Source: an uncultured Clostridia bacterium (GTDB lineage: Bacteria > Bacillota > Clostridia > Christensenellales > Pumilibacteraceae). From it: a stretch of 34,157 nt of DNA. The notes under the pieces are model-generated. The model worked only from the letters and a program-made list of their open reading frames with translations, was not told the origin of the DNA and did no database searches. The position numbers were made by a program, and so were the translations under genes. Location: NCBI GenBank assembly GCA_944376015.1, contig CALWBH010000074.1, positions 1-34,157 on the forward strand. The letters are read 5' to 3'. Of the stretch, positions 3,548-33,837 are shown in pieces (position 1 is the first letter of the stretch; every line of letters begins with the position of its first letter).

Positions 3548-4273
3548 ATGGTAAGGATAGCATTGATCGAAGACGAAAGCGACGCTATGAATACGGTAAA
3601 GGAATATCTCGGAAAGTATTCCGAAGAAACCGGCGTGGAATATCACATGCTGTGGTATACCGATCCGCGCGAGTTTCTTAACGGTTATGTCGCCAACAGT
3701 TTCGATCTTGTGTTTATGGATATAAAATTACCGGGAATGAACGGTATGAAGGCGGCGGAGAAGCTGCGCGAAATCGATCCGTCCGTCGTTCTCGTGTTTA
3801 TAACGAACATGGCGCAGTTTGCCATAAAGGGTTATGAAGTGGACGCGACGGATTTTATGGTAAAACCGCTTTCTTATCATGATTTCAGCCTTAAATTCGA
3901 GCGCGTTCTCAAAAAGATAAAAAACAACAGGGACGTGACGATAGCCGTTACCGGAAAAGGTACGGTCAAATACATTCCCGCAAAAGAAATAGTGTACGTC
4001 GAAGTTATCAAGCATCAGCTTTATTACCATACCAAAGACGATGTGTACGAAGTGCGCGGTACTATGAAAAAAGCGGAAGAGGATCTGGGCGGCATAGGCT
4101 TTGCGAGATGCAATAATTACTGCCTCGTGAATCTCAGATACGTAACGGGGGTAGTCGGCTTCGATCTTACCGTATCGCTCGGCGAGAATTCGCGCGAAAC
4201 CATTGTCATCAGTCACCCGCGCAAGAGAGAGTTCGTCAAAGCGCTCAACGAGTATCTCGGGGAGAATATGTAA
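3548..4273 (+). CDS. LytR/AlgR (LytTR) family response regulator
   Basis: REC domain (IALIEDE...FMDIKLPGMNGM...FITN...KP) followed by a LytTR DNA-binding domain (IVYVEV..HQLYYHT...Y..RGTMK..E..L....F.RCNNYCLVNLRYV). Confidence 0.9.
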   Translation: MVRIALIEDESDAMNTVKEYLGKYSEETGVEYHMLWYTDPREFLNGYVANSFDLVFMDIKLPGMNGMKAAEKLREIDPSVVLVFITNMAQFAIKGYEVDATDFMVKPLSYHDFSLKFERVLKKIKNNRDVTIAVTGKGTVKYIPAKEIVYVEVIKHQLYYHTKDDVYEVRGTMKKAEEDLGGIGFARCNNYCLVNLRYVTGVVGFDLTVSLGENSRETIVISHPRKREFVKALNEYLGENM

Positions 4274-22746: not shown

Positions 22747-23464
22747 TGTCGGTCTCCTTGATAGCCGAGCAGACGTTGGCACTGCTGCTGATGTGCGGCA
22801 ACATTTTCTCGCGCGCGCCGAAAAGCGGTTTCGATTCTTTGTCGAGCAGTACGACGTAGTCCGCGATGTCGATAATCTTGCTCTGGTGCGAAACGATAAC
22901 GACGGTTTTGCCTTTGAGCCCTTTGAACAAGCCCGTCAGACTGTCGAAGCTCCACAGGTCGATACCCGCTTCGGGTTCGTCGAGCAGGAATACTTCGCCG
23001 CCTTTGGCAAGCGCCATGGCGAGTTCCACGCGTTTAAGCTCGCCGCCCGAAAGACTGTCGCTCATTTCGCGGTCGATATAGTCGCGCGCGCACAGCCCCA
23101 CGACGGACAGCTTGTCGCAAAGCTCGCCGAGCGAGTTTTTCTGCCCGCTGGCAATGTCGAGCAGTCTGCGCACGGTAATGCCCTTGAAACGCACGGGTTG
23201 CTGGAAAGCGGTGGTAAATCCAAGGTTAGCGCGCGCGGTAATGCTTTCGTCGGTAATGTCCGCGCCGTTATAGTAAATCCGCCCGCCCGTAGGCTTTTCG
23301 ATACCCGCGAGCAGTTTTATCAGCGTGCTTTTTCCGCTGCCGTTATGTCCGGTAATGACGGTCACCGCGTGGTCGGGGAGCGTAATGTTTATATCCGAAA
23401 GAATGGTTTTGCGTTTCCCGTCCGCACCGCTTACCGTATAGTTTATGTTTTTCAGTTCGATCAT
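22739..23464 (-). CDS. ABC-type ATPase, SufC-like
   Basis: Walker A GHNGSGKST, signature LSGGELKR, Walker B FLLDEPEAGID, and a SufC-like ARANLGFTTAFQQPV segment. Start at MIELKN (ATG 23464, RBS GGAG). Confidence 0.8.
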   Translation of the reverse strand: MIELKNINYTVSGADGKRKTILSDINITLPDHAVTVITGHNGSGKSTLIKLLAGIEKPTGGRIYYNGADITDESITARANLGFTTAFQQPVRFKGITVRRLLDIASGQKNSLGELCDKLSVVGLCARDYIDREMSDSLSGGELKRVELAMALAKGGEVFLLDEPEAGIDLWSFDSLTGLFKGLKGKTVVIVSHQSKIIDIADYVVLLDKESKPLFGAREKMLPHISSSANVCSAIKETDNG

Positions 23465-23564
23465 GTGCAGTCTCCGTGTATTGTTTCTCGCGCTTTGTCT
23501 TATGCTTAGCCGCGTATGCCGAGCGCCGTGTCTGCCTGCGTAACTCGCGCCGCGGGTATTGTTT

Positions 23565-23593
23565 ATTATATAACCGATAACGATTCTTGTCAA
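23565..23593 (-). promoter_or_regulatory. consensus sigma-70 promoter of the suf pair
   Basis: On the minus strand: TTGACA (23593-23588), 17-nt spacer, TATAAT (23570-23565). Confidence 0.65.
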
Positions 23594-23695
23594 GAAATTA
23601 CGCGCAGGGCAATGCGCAAAGCCCGTTATCGGGAGCGGATAACATAAGGATAGGTGAAAAATATCGAAAAATATACAAAGAATTTTATGACATAC

Positions 23696-23724
23696 TTGTT
23701 TTTGCCGCTTTAATTTGTTATAAT
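23696..23724 (+). promoter_or_regulatory. sigma-70-type promoter (extended -10) of the Type I R-M operon
   Basis: TTGTTT (23696-23701), 17-nt spacer ending TGT, TATAAT (23719-23724). Confidence 0.55.
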
Positions 23725-23777
23725 CGTATTAAGGGCGTTTTATCGTGAAAGCGCAAGCCCTTGTAAGGAGCTTAAAA

Positions 23778-25553
23778 ATGGAAGAACTTATGACGAAATA
23801 TCAGAAACAGACCACGGTCAACGTCAGGGAAAAAGCGGATTTGATCTGGTCGATCGCGGACAAGCTGCGCGGATTGTACAAACCGCACGAGTACGGCAAC
23901 GCGATATTGCCGCTTTGCGTCATAAAAAGATTTTCCGATACGCTCAAACCCACAAGGGAAGCGGTGCTTGCGAAGAACAAAGAGCTTGACGAAAGACAGA
24001 TAAAAGTCAAGGAAGTTTTCCTGCGCCGCGCGGCGAACGCGCTGTTTTACAACATAAGCCCGATGTCGTTCGAAGACCTGCTCAAAGACCCCGACAATGT
24101 GGACGTGAACCTGAAAAAGTATTTGCAGGGTTTTTCGATGAACGTCATCGACATAATAGCGAAATTCGATTTCGAGAACGAGATAGACAAAATGTCGAAC
24201 GGCAACGTGCTGTATGTCGTGCTTCGCGAGTTCTGCTCGCAGAAAGCGTATCTCGGCGCGGATAAAGTGTCGGCGCAGGATATGGGTTATATCTTCGAGG
24301 AGCTCGTCAGGAAATTCTCCGAAAGCTACAACGAAGAAGCGGGGGCGCATTTCACCGCCCGCGACATTATATATCTGATGACCGACCTGCTCATCGGCGA
24401 CGACGCGGAGGAGCTTAAACGCGACGGTATCACGAAAACGGTCTACGACATGACGATGGGCACTTCGCAAATGCTCGCGTGCATGACCGAGCGCCTTGAA
24501 AGCATAGACGAAAACGCCGTCATAACCTGTTACGGTCAGGAATTCAACCCGCAGACTTACGCCATTGCCAAAGCCGATATGCTGATAAAAGGCGGCAGCG
24601 CGGATAATATGAAACTGGGCGACACCCTTTCGGACGACGCGTTCAAAGGCTATCATTTCGATTACATAATTTCCAACCCGCCTTTCGGCATAGAGTGGAA
24701 GCGCGAGCAGAAAGCCGTCGAAAAGGAGCACGAGGAAGGCGAAGCGGGGCGGTTCGGCGCGGGACTTCCGCCTGTGTCCGACGGTCAGATGCTCTTTATG
24801 CTCAACGGCGTGAGCAAACTCAAAGAAAACGGCGGCAGAATGGCTATCATTCAGAACGGCTCTCCGCTGTTCTCGGGCGACGCGGGCAGCGGCCAGAGCA
24901 ATATCCGCGGGTACCTGCTCGAAAACGACTGGCTGGAAGCGATCGTCCAGCTTCCCAACGACTTGTTTTACAATACGGGCATAGCGACTTATGTGTGGCT
25001 CGTGTGCAAGGGCAAAAAGGAAAACAGACAAGGCAAAGTACAGCTTATCGACGCAAGCAAGTGTTTCGAAAAACGCCGTAAAAGCCTGGGCAACAAGCGC
25101 AACGAGCTTTCGGGCGAGTGCGTGCGCCTTATACTCCGCGCCTATCTCGACTTTACCGACGGCGTTTACGAAGAAAACGGAAAGACGGTGGAAAGCAAGG
25201 TTTTTTCAAACGAGTTTTTCAAGTACAGAAAAGTCACCGTCGAACGTCCTTTACTGGGCGATAACGGCGGCATAGTAATGAAAAAAGGCAAGCCCGTGCC
25301 CGATCCCAAACTGCGCGATACCGAAATTATCCCTTGGGGAACGGATACCGACGAATATATGCGCAAAAACGTCCTGCCTTTCGCCCCCGACGCATGGGTC
25401 GACGAATCCAAAACAAAGACGGGTTATGAAATACCGTTCACGCGGCAGTTTTACAAGTACGTCGCGCCCCGTCGCAGCGAGGATATTTTTGCCGAGCTTA
25501 AAACGCTCGAAACGGAAGAAACCGAAATAATGAAGGAGCTTTTCGGGGAATGA
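23778..25553 (+). CDS. hsdM: Type I restriction-modification system, DNA methyltransferase subunit M (N6-adenine)
   Basis: HsdM_N-like N-terminus (DLIWSIADKLRG...), NPPF motif IV (IISNPPFGIEW), and operon context with hsdS and hsdR. Start at ATG 23778, 7 nt after AAGGAG; the track ORF starts at GTG 23745. Confidence 0.9.
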   Translation: MEELMTKYQKQTTVNVREKADLIWSIADKLRGLYKPHEYGNAILPLCVIKRFSDTLKPTREAVLAKNKELDERQIKVKEVFLRRAANALFYNISPMSFEDLLKDPDNVDVNLKKYLQGFSMNVIDIIAKFDFENEIDKMSNGNVLYVVLREFCSQKAYLGADKVSAQDMGYIFEELVRKFSESYNEEAGAHFTARDIIYLMTDLLIGDDAEELKRDGITKTVYDMTMGTSQMLACMTERLESIDENAVITCYGQEFNPQTYAIAKADMLIKGGSADNMKLGDTLSDDAFKGYHFDYIISNPPFGIEWKREQKAVEKEHEEGEAGRFGAGLPPVSDGQMLFMLNGVSKLKENGGRMAIIQNGSPLFSGDAGSGQSNIRGYLLENDWLEAIVQLPNDLFYNTGIATYVWLVCKGKKENRQGKVQLIDASKCFEKRRKSLGNKRNELSGECVRLILRAYLDFTDGVYEENGKTVESKVFSNEFFKYRKVTVERPLLGDNGGIVMKKGKPVPDPKLRDTEIIPWGTDTDEYMRKNVLPFAPDAWVDESKTKTGYEIPFTRQFYKYVAPRRSEDIFAELKTLETEETEIMKELFGE

Positions 25554-25557
25554 ATGA
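25449..25557 (+). repeat. direct repeat copy 1 (authentic hsdM 3' end + RBS + ATGA junction)
   Basis: 109 bp. Positions 25473-25557 are identical to 26635-26719 (85 of 85). The first 24 bp carry 5 mismatches. Confidence 0.95.
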
Positions 25558-26587
25558 GAAGTTGAATAAAGATTCGGAAAAAACAGGGAATATCGTCATT
25601 TACCAATTAGACGACGGCGAAACTCAAATCGACGTTAAATTCGAAGACGAAACCGTGTGGCTTACGCAAGCACAACTTTGCGAACTTTATCAGACGAGCA
25701 AAGCCAATGTAAGCGAACATATAAAAAATATTTTGGACGAAAAGGAGTTGGATGAAAATTCAGTTGTTCGGAAATTCCGAACAACTGCTTCCGACGGCAA
25801 ATCATATTCCGTATTGCATTATAATCTCGATATGATAATTTCTCTCGGATATAGAGTCAAATCGAGAATAGCGACTAATTTTCGCCGTTGGGCAACGGAA
25901 CGATTGAAAGAATATATGATCAAGGGCTTTGCGCTTGACGATAAGCGTTTGAAAGAACTTGGCGGGGGCGATTATTGGAAAGAACTGTTAGATCGTATAC
26001 GCGATATTCGATCTTCGGAAAAAGTAATGTACAGACAGGTTCTTGACTTGTACGCCACAAGCGTTGACTACGACCCAAAAAGTAACGAATCGATTGCTTT
26101 TTTCAAAACGGTTCAGAATAAATTACATTATGCGGCGCACGGTCATACTGCGGCGGAAGTAATATATCAGCGGGCAGATTCCGACGCGCCTTTTATGGGA
26201 TTAACCTCTTTTAGCGGCGATATGCCCGCAATGCAGGACATAACTGTAGCAAAAAATTACCTAACCGAAAAAGAACTGAAAATTTTGAATAATCTTGTAT
26301 CAGGATATTTCGATTTCGCGGAAGTGCAGGCGATTAAACACAACCCTATGTATATGAGCGATTATGTTAAATGTCTTGACAATATTTTGTCATCTACCGG
26401 TGAAAAGGTATTGGAAGGAGCAGGGAACGTAAGTCATATTCAGGCTATAGAAAAAGCCAAAGCCGAGTATAAAAAATATCAGGTAAAAACATTGACGTCG
26501 GTAGAAAAGGAATATTTGCATACTATCAAGGGTTTGGAAAAACAAGCGAAGCTAAAAGCCAAGGACGGCGGGCGAGAAAAGTCGTAA
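25550..26587 (+). CDS. rhuM: RhuM family protein (function unknown; recurrent passenger of Type I R-M loci)
   Basis: IVIYQLDDGETQIDVKFEDETVWLTQAQLCELYQTSKANVSEHIKNI...SVVRKFRTTASDGKSY.V..YNLDMIISLGYRVKS..ATNFRRWATERLKEY matches my memory of the RhuM (Virulence_RhuM) N-terminal signature. The ATGA overlaps the hsdM stop. Confidence 0.8.
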   Translation: MNEKLNKDSEKTGNIVIYQLDDGETQIDVKFEDETVWLTQAQLCELYQTSKANVSEHIKNILDEKELDENSVVRKFRTTASDGKSYSVLHYNLDMIISLGYRVKSRIATNFRRWATERLKEYMIKGFALDDKRLKELGGGDYWKELLDRIRDIRSSEKVMYRQVLDLYATSVDYDPKSNESIAFFKTVQNKLHYAAHGHTAAEVIYQRADSDAPFMGLTSFSGDMPAMQDITVAKNYLTEKELKILNNLVSGYFDFAEVQAIKHNPMYMSDYVKCLDNILSSTGEKVLEGAGNVSHIQAIEKAKAEYKKYQVKTLTSVEKEYLHTIKGLEKQAKLKAKDGGREKS

Positions 26588-26610
26588 TAACGAAATTAAC
26601 GATTCGTCGG

Positions 26611-26715
26611 TTTTACGATTGCGTCGCGCCTCGCCGCAGCGAGGATATTTTTGCCGAGCTTAAAACGCTCGAAACGGAAGAAACCGAAATAATGAAGGAG
26701 CTTTTCGGGGAATGA
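26611..26715 (+). pseudogene. hsdM 3'-terminal remnant (34 codons + stop, no start)
   Basis: In frame it reads FYDCVAPRRSEDIFAELKTLETEETEIMKELFGE*, against authentic FYKYVAPRRSEDIFAELKTLETEETEIMKELFGE*. There is no upstream start, and the frame differs from rhuM. Confidence 0.85.
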
Positions 26716-26719
26716 ATGA
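26611..26719 (+). repeat. direct repeat copy 2 (displaced hsdM 3' end)
   Basis: See copy 1. It includes AAGGAG, the TGA and the overlapping ATG-AAT-GA that starts the next gene. Confidence 0.95.
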
Positions 26720-27701
26720 AGAGAAAAAATGTTTGCCTTTGCATTATAGGGGCGGGTTCAGTGATAGAAACAATATTGATAAACTGAACACAGAAATGCA
26801 AATAACGCAATTTAGTGAAAGGACTCGTGTAATTTTTATTAACAAATTACAGGAGATATTAAATAAAATTACAGATAATGTTTCAATGTATAGTGGAGAA
26901 GATTTATTCAAAAACCTTTTTAATTATATTTGTATTGAAGTATATAATCTTGAAATGGATATAAACTGTAATTTTCCGAAAAAATTTATTTATAAGTATG
27001 ACGAATATGACCCTTATTTGTCCAAAAAAACAGTTTTTTTCAATATTGTTGAAAATACCATAAAAAACGATTCTTATGATAAAGTTTTAACAATTATTGA
27101 AGCAATTTTACTATGGACAAAACAAAATATAATTTATAGAATGCCTCAGATAAAATATCTTGAAAATGGTCAAGTGAAACAAACTGAATTTGATGAGATG
27201 AAAATCTTCAATCAGGTTTTCGAAAAAGAATTTGTCGGGTATCGTTTTATTGGTAATATTATAACACCGATTACAGATGAAATAGAAGTTAGTGAAATTA
27301 AAATCGGATTGGAAGTTGAATTTAATGGTTGTCGGTCGCACATTCAAAAAGCTCTTGGTTTTTTATCCGACAGGGAAAACCCCGATTATAAAAACAGTAT
27401 TAAAGAGAGTATTAGTGCGGTTGAGTCTATTTGTACGATTATTGTAAATGAACCGAAAAAAACTCTTGGTGATGCTATAAAGGCATTTGAAAAAAAAGGT
27501 TTGAAAATTCATCCATCGCTTAAAAAGGCATTTTTGGCTTTATATGGGTATGCCTCGGATCAAGGCGGGATACGTCATTCGGAAAGCTTATTCGAAAGTA
27601 ATGTAACATTTGAAGAAGCAAAATATATGCTCGTCAGTTGTTGTGCTTTTGTGAATTATTTGATTGCGGAATATGGAAAAATTAACGGTGAATCAAAATG
27701 A
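26712..27701 (+). CDS. AbiJ-like abortive-infection-type protein (AbiJ-NTD-like N-terminus + HEPN-like C-terminal domain)
   Basis: N-terminal ..FSERTRV..NKLQEIL resembles AbiJ N-terminal domains. The C-terminal NSIKESISAVESIC..I......TLGDAIKAFEKKG.KIHPSLKKAFLALYGYASDQGGIRH resembles the conserved helical AbiJ/HEPN-type module. This is from memory and no HMM was run. The start is ambiguous: ATG 26712 is coupled through the repeat junction, and ATG 26796 (MQITQFSER) is the alternative. Confidence 0.55.
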   Translation: MNEEKKCLPLHYRGGFSDRNNIDKLNTEMQITQFSERTRVIFINKLQEILNKITDNVSMYSGEDLFKNLFNYICIEVYNLEMDINCNFPKKFIYKYDEYDPYLSKKTVFFNIVENTIKNDSYDKVLTIIEAILLWTKQNIIYRMPQIKYLENGQVKQTEFDEMKIFNQVFEKEFVGYRFIGNIITPITDEIEVSEIKIGLEVEFNGCRSHIQKALGFLSDRENPDYKNSIKESISAVESICTIIVNEPKKTLGDAIKAFEKKGLKIHPSLKKAFLALYGYASDQGGIRHSESLFESNVTFEEAKYMLVSCCAFVNYLIAEYGKINGESK

Positions 27702-28972
27702 AAAATAGCGGTATAGAATGGATAGGCGAAATCCCTGAAAATTGGGAAGTAGTTAAATTAAAAAATATTTCTATAAAAATTAAAAGCGGCGGAACGCCTG
27801 AATCTAGTAATGATAAATATTATAATGGAAATATTCCATGGACAGTTATTGCAGATATGTCTAATGCGGATACGGTTTTATGCACTAAAAAATGTATAAC
27901 AGAAGAAGCTATAAAAAGTAAAAATTTAGAAATATTCAAAAAAGGTGCTTTACTTTATGCTATTTATGCTTCTGTTGGTAAAGTTTCTGAACTTGGTATT
28001 GATTCTACTATAAATCAAGCAATATTAGCGATATGTTTGAACAATAATTTGGCATATAAACAATATGCAAAGTTAATATTGAAATGCTATGAGATTTATG
28101 TTATTGCTGAGTCAAACGGAAACACTCAATTTAATTTAAATGCAGAAAAAGTTGCAAACTTTTCACTTCCTTATCCCCCTATTGACGAGCAACAGAAGAT
28201 AGCGGATTATCTGGACAAGCGGTGCGAGAATATCGACGGGCTTGTTGAGTTGCAAAACCGTATGATCGAAAAATTAAAGGAATACAAACAATCGGTCATT
28301 ACGGAAGCGGTCACAAAAGGTCTTGACCCCGCCGCAAAAATGAAAAACAGCGGCGTGGAATGGATAGGCGAAATCCCCGAAAATTGGGAAGTAAAAAGAT
28401 TAAAGAATATTTGTAAAATTAGAACAGGTAGTACATTATCAAAATCAAGTAATGAAAATTATTATTCTGACGAAGGGTTATTATGGGTAAAGCCTGATAA
28501 TTTAAGTGCATTTAGCTCGATAGAAAAAACTGCAGAATATATAAACGAAAAAGGTCAACAGCAAATAATAGAATTTCCGCCTTATACAGTTTTTGTTTGT
28601 TGTATAGGAACAATAGGAAAGATTGGTTATTCAAAATATCCTGCGTATTGTAATCAACAAATAAACGGGTTGATTTTTTATGAATCCATTTTGAAAAGAT
28701 TTGGACTATATATGATTTTTGCACAAGAAGAGCAACATTGGATTTTTTCTAATGGCAATGTTATTAAAATAATTAATGCGGTAAATCAAGGGAAAATAAA
28801 TGTTCCGATTCCCCCTATTGACGAGCAACAGAAGATAGCGGATTATCTGGACGCGAAGTGCGCGGAGATAGACAGACTTATTGAGATTAAACAAAAGAAA
28901 ATAGAAAAATTACAGGACTATAAAAAATCTTTGATATACGAATGTGTAACGGGTAAGCGGGAAATAAGTTGA
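27698..28972 (+). CDS. hsdS: Type I restriction-modification system specificity subunit S (two TRDs)
   Basis: Duplicated architecture. MKNSG(I/V)EWIGEIPENWEV opens each half, and PIDEQQKIADYLD...I(D/E)..I......IEKL(K/Q).YK(Q/K)S is the central or distal conserved helix. The ATGA overlaps the upstream stop. Confidence 0.92.
   Translation: MKNSGIEWIGEIPENWEVVKLKNISIKIKSGGTPESSNDKYYNGNIPWTVIADMSNADTVLCTKKCITEEAIKSKNLEIFKKGALLYAIYASVGKVSELGIDSTINQAILAICLNNNLAYKQYAKLILKCYEIYVIAESNGNTQFNLNAEKVANFSLPYPPIDEQQKIADYLDKRCENIDGLVELQNRMIEKLKEYKQSVITEAVTKGLDPAAKMKNSGVEWIGEIPENWEVKRLKNICKIRTGSTLSKSSNENYYSDEGLLWVKPDNLSAFSSIEKTAEYINEKGQQQIIEFPPYTVFVCCIGTIGKIGYSKYPAYCNQQINGLIFYESILKRFGLYMIFAQEEQHWIFSNGNVIKIINAVNQGKINVPIPPIDEQQKIADYLDAKCAEIDRLIEIKQKKIEKLQDYKKSLIYECVTGKREIS
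28174..28216 (+). repeat. hsdS conserved-region repeat, copy 1
   Basis: TCCCCCTATTGACGAGCAACAGAAGATAGCGGATTATCTGGAC is identical to 28810-28852 (43 of 43). A second, imperfect pair is 27698-27751 versus 28340-28393 (54 nt, 5 mismatches). Confidence 0.95.
28810..28852 (+). repeat. hsdS conserved-region repeat, copy 2
   Basis: Identical to 28174-28216. Confidence 0.95.
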
Positions 28973-29628
28973 AAAACAGAACTAAAAAAACAATTATAAT
29001 TGCAGTGATACTGCTTTTAGTGACGGCGGGCATAATAACGGGGATATATTTTATACCCGACGAAAAATTGTCCGATATTTTGCTTGCGGTTTTTGCCGCG
29101 GTTTCGGGCGGCGCGCTTACGCTTGCCGGCGTTGCCTGGACGATAAAACGACAGGACGAACTAAAACGGGAAGAAGAACGTAAAAAAGCCAAACCGAATT
29201 TTACGTTCAGAATGGTAAACGATCCGAATTACAATGTAGCCGAAGAACTCGTTTGCTTTGACGATAATTTCGGAAAATTCAAGTGTCGCGCATCTGCTTT
29301 TATAGTAAATTCGGACGGTTCGACATTTTCACTCGAACGCATTTACCATGACAACAAGTGGTATGATTTTGTTTGCAATAAAATCGTATTGCCGAAAGCG
29401 CAGGTTTACATAGACTTCAATTTCAATTATTTTGAACCTTTGATACTTGAAGTAAAAGACGTTTTGGGCAACAAATATCATTATGAGTTAAAAGTTTTAA
29501 TCCTAATGAAAGAAAAAAATTTAGATCCGAAAAATCAAGTAGTAGCGCATACTTTGCGTGAAATTCGCGAACTTACGGCGGAAGAATATGCCGCGCTTAA
29601 AATAGACGACGACAAGGGGGAAGAATGA
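28969..29628 (+). CDS. hypothetical two-TM membrane protein with ~140-aa cytoplasmic beta-rich domain (no family recognised)
   Basis: The only long ORF between hsdS and hsdR. TTG start in a TTGA overlap with the hsdS stop, and its stop is in an ATGA overlap with the hsdR start. TM1 IIIAVILLLVTAGIITGIYFI, TM2 ILLAVFAAVSGGALTLAGVAWTI, followed by KRQDELKREEERKKAK (positive-inside). The start codon is uncertain because no ATG is available before the TM helices. Confidence 0.6.
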   Translation: MKNRTKKTIIIAVILLLVTAGIITGIYFIPDEKLSDILLAVFAAVSGGALTLAGVAWTIKRQDELKREEERKKAKPNFTFRMVNDPNYNVAEELVCFDDNFGKFKCRASAFIVNSDGSTFSLERIYHDNKWYDFVCNKIVLPKAQVYIDFNFNYFEPLILEVKDVLGNKYHYELKVLILMKEKNLDPKNQVVAHTLREIRELTAEEYAALKIDDDKGEE

Positions 29629-32600
29629 TAGACCGTAGCGAAAAACGCTTTGAAAGCGACATAGAAGAATATCTGCTGACCGAAGGCGGGTACACGAAAG
29701 CGGACTGGAAGTATTTTAACAAGCGGTATGCCCTGGATCTGACGCGCATGACGGCGTTTATAAGCAATACGCAGCCGAAAATATGGAAGGTGTTTTCGGA
29801 GCGGTACGGCGCGCAAGCGGAAGAGGCGTTATACAAGCGGTTTCAGTCCGAAGTCGGAGCGCGGGGGCTGATAAGCGTACTCCGCGACGGTTTGCCCGAC
29901 GTGTCTTTGCGCGGGGCGCGGATAAAGCTGGCATACTTCAAGCCTTCGTCCGCGCTGAACGACGAGTTGAACGAGCTTTACGAGAAAAACTTTCTCGATT
30001 GCGGACGGCAGTTTTATTACAGCGAGCAGAACAGGAAGTCGGTGGACATGGTGCTTATGCTCAACGGTATACCCGTTGTCGCGCTCGAACTCAAAAACCA
30101 ACAGACGGGGCAGAGCGTAAACGACGGCGTGCGGCAATGGCAGTACGACCGCGATCCGCGCGAGCTTGTTTTCAGGTTCGACAGCCGCGTGCTGGTATAT
30201 TTCGCGGTTGACCTTTACGAAGTCCGAATGGCTACCGAGCTGAAAGGGGAAAACACGTTTTTCATGCCGTTCAATCAGGGTTCGTGCGGCGCGGGTAACG
30301 TCGGCGGCGCGGGCAACCCGCCGAGCAACGACGGCTATGCCACCGAATATCTGTGGAAAAAATTTCTTTGCCGCGAAGGGTTGCTCGGACTTTTGCAGAA
30401 ATACATAAGCCGTCAGAAAGAAACGCAGTTCTACCTCGAAAATGGCAGAATGAAGGAGCGGACGAGCGAAAAAATTATTTTCCCGCGGTATCATCAATAT
30501 GACGTCGTGGAAAAAGCGATAAGCGACGTGCGCGACAACGGCACGGGCAGAAACTATCTGATACAGCACAGCGCGGGCAGCGGCAAGTCCAACTCCATTG
30601 CGTGGCTGGTGTATCGGCTTTCCACGCTTTACGACCGCGCCGACCGCGGTATATTCGATTCGGTAATAGTCGTTACCGACAGGCGGTTGCTGAATGCGCA
30701 ATTACAGGACACGATACAGAGTTTTACGCACAAGGCGGGGCAGATTCGCACCATAAAGGACAGCGATCCGAGCGGTGATCTCGCTCAGGCTATCGCCGAC
30801 GGCGTGCCTATCATCGTGTGTACGCTTTTCCGCTTCTCGGTCATTTTCAAAGCGGGCAAAGTGCTCAACATGAAGGGCAAAAGATTCGCCGTCGTCATCG
30901 ACGAAGCGCACTCGTCGCAGAACGGCGAAAGCGCGCAAAATCTGAAATCGGTGCTTGCGGACACTACGGGCGCGGAAGAAGAGTACGACGACGATTCGGA
31001 CGGGTTCGATACCCTCGACGAAGAAATGCTCAGACACGGCATGCACGACAATCAGTCGTTTTTCGCATTCACCGCTACGCCCAAACCCAAGACTTTGCAG
31101 AAGTTCGGGCAACGGCAGGCGGACGGGACTTACAGACCTTTCCATGTATACAGCATGAAACAGGCTATCGAAGAGGGGTTTATCCTCGACGTTCTCCGCT
31201 TTTACAGCACGATAAAAAACAGTTTCGAGATCGTCAACAATACTTCGGAAAACCCCGAGCTGCTCGAGCTTCCCACCATTAAGGCGATAAGGGATTTTCA
31301 GCGCGGGTATTCGGGCACTATCGAGATGAAGACCGCCGTTATCGTCGAGCAGTTCAGGCAGATAACGCTGTCTAAAATGATAAGCGGCGGCGTTTCCCAC
31401 GCAAAAGCCATGGTCGTCACGTCGTCGCGCAAAAGCGCCGTGCAGTATTATTTCGCGATACGCAGGTATATCCGCGAGCATGGTTATACCGACGTTATGC
31501 CGCTTGTAGCGTTCTCGGGAAAGGTGAACATCGACGGCGAAGAGTACACCGAACCCGCGCTCAACAAACTGTCGGGGGTCAATATCTCGGAAGAGCAGCT
31601 CAGGTATTACTTTGCGTCAACTATGTTCAATATGCTCATAGTCGCGGACAAGTACCAGACGGGTTTCGACGAACCGCAGCTCCATACCATGTTCGTCGAC
31701 AAAAAGCTGAAAGGCGTCAAAGCCGTGCAGACTTTGTCAAGGCTCAACCGTACTTGCAAAAAGTATGATAAAACCGATACATACGTTCTCGATTTCGTCA
31801 ATACCGCAGAGGATATTCAAAAGGCGTTCGAGCCGTTCTATACGGACACTTTGCTCGAAAGCGAGATAGACCCGAACAAGCTCTACGAGATGAAACGCGA
31901 TATCGAAGGATTCGGGTTTATCGACGCCGAATCCGTGGAGAAATTCGCGGCGGCTTACGACGAGATCAGCCGTACGGCGCAAAAGAAAAGCAGTCAGGGG
32001 CTGCTCACTTCCGTTATAAAACCGACGGTGGAGCGTTATAACGCGGCGGCGACGGATACGCGCGCGTCTTTCCGCAAACTGCTCAAAGGCTTTACTCGGT
32101 TCTACGCTTTCGTAACGCAGATCATACGCATTTTCGATAAACAGTTGCATAAATTCTATTTGTTTTGCGACTGGGCGCTCAGACAGCTGCCGAAAAATCC
32201 CGTGCTTAAATGGGAAATCGATATTTCGGTAATCAACAATACGCTTACCGAAACATTTAACGGCTCCGTCTCTCTCAGCGGCAAGGATAACGTTTTCAAA
32301 CCTACCGACGACCGCGGCGGAAAAGCCGTTAAGCAGACAGAACTGCTCAATGTTATAATCGACCATATCAACGACGCGTACGGCGATAATTTCACGGACG
32401 AGGGCAAAAATATGGTTCGTTCGATCTATGCGCGGATGACGAGCGATCAGAGCGGGAAACTCGTTAAAATGGTGCGCAACAGCGACGAAGAAATGTTCGT
32501 AAAAAGCATTTTTCCCGATTATTTCGCTCTGAAATCCGAAGAATGTTATAATTCGCAATCGGACGCTTATGCGTTGCTATTTCGAGACAGCGATTATTAC

Positions 32601-32654
32601 CGTATCGTAATGGAAGAAATGGCGCGGGCGATATACAGGAAATTCAAAAAATAA
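29625..32654 (+). CDS. hsdR: Type I restriction-modification system endonuclease/translocase subunit R
   Basis: N-terminal PD-(D/E)xK nuclease (VDMVLMLNGIPVVALELKNQ), helicase motif I (QHSAGSGKSNSIAW), DEAH box (VVIDEAHSSQ), motifs III-VI (FAFTATP...QTLSRLNRT). 1009 aa. Confidence 0.92.
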   Translation: MIDRSEKRFESDIEEYLLTEGGYTKADWKYFNKRYALDLTRMTAFISNTQPKIWKVFSERYGAQAEEALYKRFQSEVGARGLISVLRDGLPDVSLRGARIKLAYFKPSSALNDELNELYEKNFLDCGRQFYYSEQNRKSVDMVLMLNGIPVVALELKNQQTGQSVNDGVRQWQYDRDPRELVFRFDSRVLVYFAVDLYEVRMATELKGENTFFMPFNQGSCGAGNVGGAGNPPSNDGYATEYLWKKFLCREGLLGLLQKYISRQKETQFYLENGRMKERTSEKIIFPRYHQYDVVEKAISDVRDNGTGRNYLIQHSAGSGKSNSIAWLVYRLSTLYDRADRGIFDSVIVVTDRRLLNAQLQDTIQSFTHKAGQIRTIKDSDPSGDLAQAIADGVPIIVCTLFRFSVIFKAGKVLNMKGKRFAVVIDEAHSSQNGESAQNLKSVLADTTGAEEEYDDDSDGFDTLDEEMLRHGMHDNQSFFAFTATPKPKTLQKFGQRQADGTYRPFHVYSMKQAIEEGFILDVLRFYSTIKNSFEIVNNTSENPELLELPTIKAIRDFQRGYSGTIEMKTAVIVEQFRQITLSKMISGGVSHAKAMVVTSSRKSAVQYYFAIRRYIREHGYTDVMPLVAFSGKVNIDGEEYTEPALNKLSGVNISEEQLRYYFASTMFNMLIVADKYQTGFDEPQLHTMFVDKKLKGVKAVQTLSRLNRTCKKYDKTDTYVLDFVNTAEDIQKAFEPFYTDTLLESEIDPNKLYEMKRDIEGFGFIDAESVEKFAAAYDEISRTAQKKSSQGLLTSVIKPTVERYNAAATDTRASFRKLLKGFTRFYAFVTQIIRIFDKQLHKFYLFCDWALRQLPKNPVLKWEIDISVINNTLTETFNGSVSLSGKDNVFKPTDDRGGKAVKQTELLNVIIDHINDAYGDNFTDEGKNMVRSIYARMTSDQSGKLVKMVRNSDEEMFVKSIFPDYFALKSEECYNSQSDAYALLFRDSDYYRIVMEEMARAIYRKFKK

Positions 32655-32727
32655 ACTTTTGCGGAAAAAATCCGCGAAAATCGCAGAGATTTATTAACGA
32701 GAACCCCGCGCGATCTGCGGAGTGTGG

Positions 32728-32754
32728 AAAAGCCGCCTTTTAAGACGGCTTTTT
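32728..32754. terminator. hairpin/terminator between convergent hsdR and collagen-like genes
   Basis: AAAAGCCG-(10 nt)-CGGCTTTT followed by T. A/T tracts on both sides make it usable in either direction. Confidence 0.5.
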
Positions 32755-32859
32755 CGTTTGCGCTTTCACGTTTCGCGGTAATGCGAACCGCGCGGAAATA
32801 TTTACGGAATATGCCGCCCGTGGCGATACCTTTCGGAATCAGCGCCGTCAGGGCAACGT

Positions 32860-33837
32860 TTACCTTTGATCGCTCACGGTGGCGTCGCTGTTGCTTGCTT
32901 GAAGCGCGGTAAGCGGGTCGTACGGCGCGCCCGATACCGTTCCCGCAAGCAGCGCGATGTCTACGGCGTTTTCGGGAATACCCCACGAATTGCCCGAAAA
33001 CACGAATACAGCCCGATCCACGACATATCCGCGCGTGTCGTACGCCACGTTATATATAATGTCGCCAGAAGAATCGGGGTTAAGGTATGCGGGTTGACGT
33101 AAAGAATAAAAGATATTGTTGCGCACGAGCAGGTCGGATATGCCGTTCTGCGTAACGAACGCGCGGTTTACCACCCATGTCGAAGAATCTCCCGATTGCG
33201 CGGGTCCGTAAATTTTGCAATTAACGATTTCGTCGCCGTTGCCGCCCACCTGTATGAATTCTACGGGGTAGGGCGCGTCGCTCGTCATCGTCAGTCCGTC
33301 TATCGTCACGTCGTCCGCGCTGAGCAGAAACGGCACGATCGGCGCTTCGAGCAGTATTTCCGCGCCTGCATTGCCCTTTATCGTCAGCCCGGGTATGTTT
33401 ATCCCGAGCTGCTGCGTCACAGGGTATGTGCCGCTCAGCACGTTTATCACACCGTTGGGAAGAGATGCGTCCAGCGCCTCCCTCAGGGTCTGAAACGGTG
33501 CCAACCGACTTCCGTCGCCGCCCGCCGCCGCGTCCGCCTGTACGTACAGATCGAACGGATCGGTCTGGACGGGACCCGTCGCGCCCGTCGGACCTGTGGG
33601 ACCTGTAGCGCCGTTACTTCCGTTCGCGCCTGTCGCTCCCGTCGCTCCCGTCGGACCGGTCGGACCCGTGCCGCCGCCCGAGCTTGACGGACCCGTCGGA
33701 CCCATGGGACCTGTTGCGCCCGTCGGACCGGGCGGACCCGTAGGACCGGGCGGACCGGGAATGCCCGCGGGACCCGTTACAAAACATAAATATCGGCAAG
33801 GCGGACAACCGCCGCACCCGTTGTTATCGAAAAACAT
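32860..33837 (-). CDS. collagen-like triple-helix-repeat protein with C-terminal right-handed beta-helix (DUF1565/pectin-lyase-fold-like) domain
   Basis: Cys-rich N-terminus (5 Cys in the first 18 aa), 23 G-X-Y triplets, then [31 protein letters not shown]...GLTIKG, a DUF1565-type beta-helix start. RBS GGAGGG lies 6 nt before the ATG. Confidence 0.85.
33571..33774 (-). repeat. GXY (mostly GPT/GAT) collagen-like triplet tract
   Basis: [30 protein letters not shown] [SSG] [36 protein letters not shown]. One triplet lacks Gly at position 1. The DNA is a degenerate 9-bp repeat (GGACCCGTCGG-like on the plus strand). Confidence 0.9.

Follow-up and report, generated by a model that had tools for sequence, protein, structure and literature searches.

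The window, a stretch of 34,157 nucleotides (nt) from an uncultured Clostridia bacterium (contig CALWBH010000074.1), carries a type I restriction-modification (R-M) operon in which an extra gene lies upstream of hsdS. Judged from its sequence, this gene (26712..27701, plus strand) belongs to the AbiJ-NTD4 / PDC-S32 family of predicted phage-defence RNases, which is large and catalogued but lacks experimental characterization. The product is most likely a two-domain, single-polypeptide defence protein, with an N-terminal domain (NTD) of the AbiJ type and a C-terminal domain (CTD) that resembles HEPN proteins. Within the CTD, the catalytic histidine of HEPN nucleases appears to be kept, while the arginine that normally precedes it at a distance appears to have moved next to it. 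The gene and the elements of its product are as follows; hidden Markov models are abbreviated as HMMs, open reading frames as ORFs and the nonsynonymous substitution rate as dN.

26712..27701, plus strand: AbiJ-NTD4 / PDC-S32 family gene, 329 amino acids, ATG start (ORF listing, Pfam and PADLOC)
26748..26843, plus strand: invariant N-terminal signature R13-G-G-F-S-D-R19...Q30...R37-T-R39...N44 (invariant alignment columns)
26844..27206, plus strand: variable helical part of the NTD, residues ~45-165, putative sensor region (identity, indels and dN)
27228..27287, plus strand: conserved beta-hairpin linker E173-x-V-G-Y-R-F...I187-T-D189..E192 (invariant or near-invariant columns)
27309..27686, plus strand: C-terminal HEPN-like domain, residues 200-325 (AlphaFold (AF2) models, Foldseek and a weak Abi_C match)
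27402..27425, plus strand: invariant helix-2 segment K231-E232-S-I-S-A-V-E238, with a candidate acidic active-site residue (invariant columns)
27555..27578, plus strand: variant motif S282-D283-Q-G-G-I-R288-H289, encoded by TCG GAT CAA GGC GGG ATA CGT CAT (invariance and HMM probing)

Identity of the protein and size of the family

The NTD matches the Pfam family AbiJ_NTD4 (PF18863) at 51.4 bits (E 2.1e-13), well above the gathering cut-off of 34 bits, with residues 16-197 aligned to profile positions 3-147 of 152. The same family is matched by all 40 of the aligned homologues. Two PADLOC HMMs for the candidate defence system PDC-S32 cover both domains: PDLC04997 (E 2.7e-82) aligns residues 15-321 to profile positions 9-281 of 285, and PDLC04996 (E 5.2e-77) also spans residues ~15-321. 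A database search with the 329-residue protein returned 5,381 homologues at E<=1e-3 (over 5,000 clusters at 90% identity); precomputed annotations for both PF18863 and PF14355 (Abi_C) are attached to many of these. At least 582 confirmed relatives are found in species-representative genomes among the matches listed. Relatives encoded on plasmids are labelled 'AbiJ-NTD4 domain-containing protein' in RefSeq.

The initial annotation of this DNA had described the product as AbiJ-like and proposed a profile search of the AbiJ_NTD families. The AbiJ_NTD4 and PDC-S32 matches now bear out that description, as does the RefSeq naming of the plasmid relatives. Every peptide it had quoted from the ORF (SISAVESIC, TLGDAIKAF, IHPSLKKAF and ALYGYASDQGGIRHSE) is found in the translation, and the ATGA coupling to hsdS that it had placed at 27698 is confirmed by the overlap of the stop codon TGA (27699-27701) with the hsdS start ATG (27698-27700). 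The FSER segment to which it had drawn attention also exists, as QFSERTR at residues 32-38. The AbiJ 'FSxRxG' signature, however, lies elsewhere, in GGFSDRNNI at residues 14-22, and FSER (residues 33-36) belongs to the second motif of the family, D-x-R-T-R.

Other assignments were considered and set aside. The NCBIfam model STM4504/CBY_0614 (NF046078) matches residues ~100-247 with 16-24 bits against a cut-off of 150; identity with this subfamily was rejected because the match is weak, partial and stops before the catalytic part of the CTD. A PHROGs search with the 329-residue protein gave no match. Neither the protein nor a CTD profile gave a meaningful match when searched against the sequences of PDB chains, and the best-scoring chain, EscO (E 0.012), was discarded as a short helical match.

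Contrast between the two domains

Conservation was read from an alignment of 40 sequences and from a second alignment of relatives from ~80 species. The N-terminal signature recurs in relatives from distant phyla as the pattern FSxRxG...Q...D.xLR..N. It is followed by the helical region ~45-165, in which the alignment contains numerous indels. The linker that precedes the CTD forms two strands in the AlphaFold model (177-180 and 183-186), and tblastn matches of distant relatives begin at this beta-hairpin.

The two domains differ markedly in their rate of change, and the NTD, an alpha+beta domain, diverges the faster. Relatives embedded in similar operons share 26-34% identity with the window protein in the NTD versus 50-72% in the CTD (values based on the multiple sequence alignment). 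Relative to a sister contig (L090, described below), dN in the variable N-terminal region is 5-fold above that of the CTD. The ratio of dN to the synonymous rate (dN/dS) against L090 is 0.41 in the variable region and 0.30 in the CTD, values that support a difference in rate only and give no sign of positive selection in this comparison. A variable NTD joined to a conserved CTD fits a sensor/effector arrangement, and N-terminal diversification far in excess of that of the CTD would fit recognition of changing phage targets.

The C-terminal HEPN-like domain

AlphaFold models were obtained for the full-length protein (mean predicted local distance difference test, pLDDT, 77) and for the CTD alone (pLDDT 80; predicted template-modelling score, pTM, 0.76). 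Both show the same layout, in which the CTD folds as a bundle of four helices (205-219, 226-245, 268-283 and 300-328) with a short helical insert (252-261) between helices 2 and 3. When compared with the PDB by Foldseek, the top three matches of the full model are all HEPN proteins, as are 13 of the 17 top matches of the CTD-only model. Across both models, the HEPN matches comprise 2hsb, 1ufb, 1wol, 8xeh, 8xdj, 1o3u, sacsin (3o10), 4nqf and AbiV (9bj5), with template-modelling scores of 0.5-0.67 and Foldseek probabilities of 0.8-1.0. AF0298 (2hsb) is the best structural match. Support for the fold derives from the consistency of this list, as no single Foldseek match is strong.

Profile comparisons point in the same direction at scores below the Pfam thresholds. 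Sub-threshold matches to Abi_C occur in 32 of the 40 homologues and matches to DUF4145 in 6 of them, and the best-scoring CTD among the relatives reaches 20.7 bits against an Abi_C cut-off of 24. A regular-expression scan of all ORFs in about 90 loci found no canonical Abi_C protein. The models support HEPN fold membership; formal membership in Pfam Abi_C is not attained. The C-terminal helical module that the initial annotation had likened to HEPN domains is accordingly modelled as four helices, with HEPN proteins at the head of the Foldseek lists.

Conservation in this domain extends well beyond the motif region. Mean column identity across phyla is 53%, and one stretch, DRxNPDYxNSIKESISAVE, is near-invariant. 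Within helix 2 (226-245), both E232 and E238 are invariant; D225 and Y278 are likewise invariant in the 40-sequence alignment. An acidic residue of helix 2 is typically conserved in HEPN families (PMC3710099), and E232 and E238 would fit the acidic partner that the active site usually has.

A variant catalytic motif

The dipeptide R288-H289 is invariant in the 40-sequence alignment and in the ~80 species-level relatives. It is kept in relatives from Planctomycetota, Chloroflexota, Pseudomonas and Nostoc, and in plasmid proteins of P. aeruginosa, Enterobacter and Yersinia that are 27-34% identical to the window protein. In more than 100 relatives, no Arg is present 5-7 residues before H289 and no His 4-7 residues after R288. 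All relatives have S, T, N or C in the slot of the canonical Arg and retain the His and the polar residue. Adjacency of Arg and His without a canonical Rx4-6H motif, as first noticed in the initial annotation, is thus real and family-wide.

The register of this motif was probed by scoring point variants of two CTDs, that of the window protein and that of the best-scoring relative, against the Pfam Abi_C HMM. For the relative, the wild-type score of 20.7 bits was lost entirely with H289A or H289N (no match), rose to 22.4 bits with R288A (+1.7) and rose to 23.0 bits with R-N introduced at positions -7/-6 (+2.3). For the window CTD, S282R/D283N raised the score from 14.6 to 20.3 bits (+5.7), and an alternative register (H289N plus a His at +7) scored 15.5 bits. 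In the profile, H289 falls on the conserved His and G286 on G229 of SadR; the polar position goes to D283 and that of the lost Arg to S282. A register in which R288-H289 begins an R-[polar] motif whose distal His has been lost was rejected, since the Abi_C match disappears with either substitution of H289 (A or N) and gains score with R288A.

Because this probing fixes the register, H289 is better read as the canonical His and R288 as a relocated Arg, in a predicted motif of the form [S/T]-D-x2-G-[I/V]-R-H where R288 is not the 'R' of Rx4-6H. The earlier picture of a collapsed R...H pair is revised in this respect: the adjacency stands, but H289 falls on the Abi_C His and S282 occupies the Arg slot. 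In the CTD model, helix 3 ends at D283 and G-G-I-R-H opens the loop to helix 4; the Rx4-6H motif of HEPN domains is located at the end of helix 3 or in the loop to helix 4 (Anantharaman et al., PMC3710099).

The motif of the Abi_C protein SadR is R225-N-E-Y-G-D-A-H232, and its three key residues are essential for RNA cleavage and defence (PMC13590631). Several HEPN families, including Parep1/8, AbiV and AF0298, have lost one motif residue while keeping a compensating basic residue or His (PMC3710099). One of these, AbiV, was later shown to cleave rRNA. Many HEPN domains that lack the motif are not RNases (PMC3710099). No description of the relocated-arginine motif or of such strong conservation of the whole HEPN domain was found in the literature.

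Organization of the operon

Pfam identifies the system around the gene as type I R-M, with HsdM, HsdS and HsdR. Its remaining elements are listed below (TM, transmembrane; TRD, target recognition domain).

23745..25553, plus strand: hsdM (Pfam N6_Mtase and HsdM_N)
25550..26587, plus strand: rhuM-family cargo gene (Pfam Virulence_RhuM, E 2e-107; PADLOC PDC-S05, E 7e-163)
26605..26719, plus strand: duplicated hsdM 3' end, 115 nt, 94% identical to 25443-25557 (repeat search)
27698..28972, plus strand: hsdS (Pfam Methylase_S, two TRDs; internal repeats)
28969..29628, plus strand: 219-residue protein with two N-terminal TM segments (hydropathy), in the slot between hsdS and hsdR
29625..32654, plus strand: hsdR (Pfam HSDR_N, ResIII, SWI2_SNF2 and T1R_D3-like)

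All junctions overlap or abut, so this seven-part block reads as one operon. The true start of hsdM is probably the ATG at 23778 rather than the GTG at 23745, because the L090 orthologue begins at the corresponding ATG (MEELMTKYQ). The initial annotation had placed the AbiJ-like gene between hsdM and hsdS, which is correct, but the gene does not adjoin hsdM: the rhuM gene and the 115-nt hsdM duplicate intervene. Direct repeats of the hsdM 3' end (25443-25557 and 26605-26719) bracket rhuM, and the downstream copy supplies the AbiJ-like gene with an AAGGAG Shine-Dalgarno sequence (26695-26700) and an ATGA junction.

Base composition divides the operon (window 23400-32800). The guanine-cytosine (GC) content of hsdM and hsdR is 0.51, like that of the flanks, as opposed to 0.40 for rhuM, 0.30 for the AbiJ-like gene, 0.33 for hsdS and 0.39 for the TM gene. 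The centre of the operon looks to have been horizontally exchanged as a block. The 219-residue TM protein matches no family in Pfam, NCBIfam or PADLOC, and weak relatives of it occur only in three loci (L030, L043 and L044). In related operons, the position between hsdS and hsdR is filled by non-homologous genes of 130 to 491 residues, other TM proteins included. This junction behaves as a second variable cargo slot.

Scans for promoters and terminators performed at chance level and were not used. No tandem repeats or Rfam families were found in 23000-33000. A type III toxin-antitoxin (TA) system of the AbiV/AbiF/ToxIN-like kind was rejected on this account, the intergenic DNA consisting only of the hsdM 3' remnant. 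Beyond the operon, the ORF at 32860-33837 on the minus strand encodes 325 residues with collagen-like G-X-Y / GPTGP repeats in its N-terminal part and a beta-helix-like C-terminal part, in a region with a local GC content of 0.62-0.67.

Shuffling between near-identical strains

The sister contig L090 shares the sufBD/sufC flank with the window at 91-93% nucleotide identity. Its order is hsdM, AbiJ-like (89% amino acid identity) and hsdS, with ATGA junctions on both sides of the AbiJ-like gene, and rhuM is absent. The 3' end of its hsdM (3669-3788) is present in a single copy that aligns to both repeat copies of the window. As this rhuM-less copy aligns to both repeats, the sequence comparison shows that rhuM together with one repeat copy is a recent insertion of 1,162 bp. 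The repeat carries both the Shine-Dalgarno sequence and the ATGA, whereby both downstream genes keep their translation signals.

A second difference concerns hsdS. Its conserved regions are 97-100% identical between the window (27698-28972) and L090 (4772-6061), whereas the TRDs are unalignable, which indicates a recent TRD exchange and hence that the R-M specificity differs between backgrounds that are nearly identical. The two contigs also carry unrelated genes after hsdS. In L090 (6061-6390), as in L001 (10214-10768), this slot holds a 184-residue phrog_18591 protein with the segment ...SLRCxxLH..., an Rx4H-like motif; this protein takes the place of the window TM protein in the sister strain, and its gene may be a further small cargo gene of HEPN type. 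Near-identical strains have swapped the contents of their cargo slots, and the locus is being actively shuffled.

Genomic context across the family

Relatives were divided into a close clade, which matches over the full length (49 species-level loci), and a distant clade of 25 loci from different phyla, which matches only from residue ~150 onward. In the close clade, the gene directly upstream encodes an N6 methylase in 19 of the 49 loci, about 39% (with HsdM_N in 18), and the gene directly downstream is hsdS in 18. A homologue with 49% identity occurs on several contigs in the order hsdM, AbiJ-like, hsdS, small ORF and hsdR. The other close-clade loci include prophage tail regions (3 loci), TA modules and unrelated genes. 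In L045, L048 and L067 (8930-11908), from Lachnospiraceae/Clostridia, the AbiJ-like gene lies directly upstream of a phage minor-tail (tape-measure-like) gene, and these copies are taken to be prophage-borne on account of that neighbour.

Association with R-M genes is rarer in the distant clade, where hsdS accounts for 2 of 43 neighbouring genes. Two of its members, L059 and L075, have the AbiJ-like gene after a probable hsdS (hsdM, a gene of ~390-400 residues, AbiJ-like, further genes and an hsdR-like gene), so that the slot within type I operons varies across the family. Plasmid relatives stand alone or beside TA and TIR genes, and phage genomes also carry relatives. Among 21 embedded pairs, HsdM identity correlates with CTD identity of the AbiJ-like protein (Mantel r 0.76, p 0.0005). 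The correlation reflects two deep operon classes, with r -0.01 inside the long-HsdM class. Embedding is frequent and old in one clade and facultative for the family.

Proposed function

It is fairly probable that the protein works on its own as an abortive-infection RNase and that its gene is translationally coupled cargo of an R-M operon that has been shuffled. In this model, the HEPN domain would be a metal-independent, probably dimeric RNase that is kept inactive in the resting cell by, or together with, the NTD. A phage-derived cue, recognized by the variable N-terminal region, would release the HEPN domain; His289-dependent RNA cleavage would then arrest translation and abort the infection. 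Embedding in the hsd operon would provide co-expression and co-transfer and thereby a layered defence, and would be dispensable for activity. Autonomy is suggested by the many relatives that have no R-M operon around them: some are carried by plasmids, with TA or TIR genes as neighbours, and others by prophages or phages.

The scheme has precedents. The NTDs of AbiJ proteins have been proposed to be sensors or antitoxins and their HEPN domains suicide RNases (Anantharaman et al. 2013). SadR, an Abi_C protein, is an RNase with RNase-dependent defence (PMC13590631). Escape mutants of lactococcal AbiJ map to phage recombination proteins, and genes embedded in R-M systems have been listed as defence candidates under the principle of 'guilt by embedding' (Payne et al.).

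Several observations count against an autonomous RNase. The individual Foldseek E-values are weak (0.04-1). The isolated window CTD scores 14.6 bits against Abi_C (PF14355), below the cut-off of 24, and the full-length window protein gives no Abi_C match in Pfam at E<=1. The canonical Arg is absent, and some HEPN domains that lack the full motif are non-catalytic. Confidence in the modelled motif loop is low (pLDDT <50 at residues 283-294 in the full-length model, with a dip in the CTD model too). A toxin domain would not usually be conserved throughout to the extreme degree that the CTD is, which could reflect a different, partner-binding role, and the tracking of HsdM class by CTD clade at the deep level would also fit functional coupling to R-M. 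Finally, a literature search found no paper that mentions PDC-S32 or studies AbiJ-NTD4 function, and no member of the clade tested.

Such coupling is the basis of the first alternative, a PrrC-like guard that would sit latent on the HsdM2S1(R2) complex and be unleashed as an RNase by a phage anti-restriction protein of the Ocr, ArdA or Stp type. The ATGA coupling to hsdS is in keeping with it, all the more so as the ancestral arrangement (L090, L091 and L006) is ATGA-coupled to both hsdM and hsdS; the same slot is used in 18-19 of the 49 close-clade species, the CTD clade correlates with HsdM class, and Payne et al. cite the precedent of PrrC. However, hsd genes are not adjacent in about 60% of close and nearly all distant relatives, lone relatives exist on plasmids and in phages, CTD and HsdM do not co-diverge within the long-HsdM class, and L059 and L075 use a different operon slot. 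The protein also lacks a PrrC-like NTPase domain, and PrrC is almost exclusively embedded while the AbiJ-NTD4 / PDC-S32 family is not. A guard of this kind is regarded as unlikely. The analogy with PrrC-EcoprrI drawn in the initial annotation is not supported, for the same reasons: hsdM lies upstream in 19 of 49 and hsdS downstream in 18 of 49 close-clade loci, hsdS makes up 2 of 43 distant-clade neighbours, stand-alone plasmid and phage copies occur, and no NTPase domain is present.

A related idea, rather unlikely, is that the family is a distinct HEPN catalytic variant with a migrated Arg, whose near-invariant surface would recognize one universally conserved cellular RNA (such as a tRNA loop or an rRNA site) instead of cleaving RNA non-specifically, and which would serve in hsd operons as a PrrC-like backup triggered by neutralization of the R-M enzyme.

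The conserved surface could also be read without catalysis. Here, RNase activity would have been lost and the HEPN domain would be a nucleotide-, RNA- or protein-binding module that modulates the R-M system or another effector. Absence of the canonical Rx4-6H and the many motif-less HEPN domains that are not RNases (PMC3710099) would agree with this, and the conservation of the entire CTD surface, with a mean column identity of 53% across phyla, suggests a conserved partner. Yet thousands of sequences show no change in the His on the catalytic position, the adjacent Arg, the Asp or the two Glu residues of helix 2, a pattern that argues against loss of activity. RNase activity is still predicted or demonstrated for families such as Parep1/8 and AbiV, which lost R or H and kept another basic residue or His, and neither a second effector domain in the protein nor a constant partner gene was found. 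A non-catalytic role is therefore considered quite improbable.

A selfish addiction or hitch-hiking cassette, in which an NTD antitoxin and a CTD toxin spread with the mobile hsdS-containing centre and have little or no antiphage role, is very improbable: the low GC of the central block (rhuM, AbiJ-like, hsdS and the 219-residue TM gene; 0.30-0.40 versus 0.51 for hsdM/hsdR), the swapping of cargo slots between near-identical strains and the selfish benefit of embedding discussed by Payne et al. would suit it, but the N-terminal region diversifies far more than the CTD, as fits changing phage targets, the family is carried by prophages and phages, where exclusion genes would be expected, and the AbiJ and SadR relatives protect against phage.

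Significance

The family is very large, common in gut Clostridia, and has a HEPN domain too divergent for the Pfam Abi_C model, which is why the recent Abi_C/AbiJ census did not take it in. Should the relocated-Arg HEPN domain prove to be an active, phage-triggered RNase, the Rx4-6H rule for calling HEPN nucleases active would have to be widened, and one 'guilt-by-embedding' candidate would be validated. The locus also exemplifies type I R-M operons as carriers with defined cargo slots, in which translational coupling survives the insertion of cargo by way of short duplications of the hsdM 3' end.

Comparison with known systems

The AbiJ-NTD4 family was defined computationally in 2013 and later listed as a guilt-by-embedding candidate, and the present result is largely confirmatory. 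The window protein belongs with PADLOC PDC-S32 (Payne et al.), which has the same two domains and the same habit of embedding in type I R-M operons. PDC-S32 is a candidate system only and is equivalent to the RefSeq 'AbiJ-NTD4 domain-containing protein'. CBY_0614, the prototype of AbiJ-NTD4 (Anantharaman et al. 2013), shares NTD4 and belongs to a different subfamily.

AbiJ (Lactococcus Abi-859) and SadR (S. aureus) likewise combine an AbiJ NTD of the FSxRxG type with a C-terminal HEPN domain. They are single-gene systems, some of which are located in R-M operons, and the His of the window protein aligns with the catalytic His of Abi_C. The motifs differ: SadR has R-N-x5-H (RNEYGDAH), the window protein S-D-x2-G-I-R-H, which departs from the pattern R-[polar]-x3-5-H. 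The Abi_C domain of AbiJ and SadR is matched only below threshold here (14.6-20.7 bits versus 24). A 2026 census of Abi_C/SadR proteins comprised 2,815 members, of which only 3 carry AbiJ-NTD4 and none of these was matched by PADLOC. The AbiJ-NTD4 / PDC-S32 clade therefore lies essentially outside that set.

The loss of one Rx4-6H residue with a proposed compensating basic residue or His is shared with Parep1/8, AbiV and HEPN-T proteins of the AF0298 type. AbiV and AF0298 have an alternative His, supplied by the insert between helices 2 and 3, in place of the one lost, whereas in the window protein the His is kept and the Arg has apparently moved to the position before it.

PrrC/RloC (EcoprrI) has in common with the AbiJ-NTD4 / PDC-S32 family a HEPN-type C-terminal nuclease domain inside an hsd operon and the logic of layered defence. 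In PrrC, the motif is the canonical Rx4-6H and the N-terminal domain an ABC-type NTPase; its gene is positioned between hsdS and hsdR and is almost exclusively embedded. The window protein matches no NTPase family in Pfam, NCBIfam or PADLOC. In contrast to PrrC, the AbiJ-NTD4 / PDC-S32 family combines an AbiJ NTD with a variant motif, is positioned between hsdM and hsdS and, outside one clade, is mostly not embedded.

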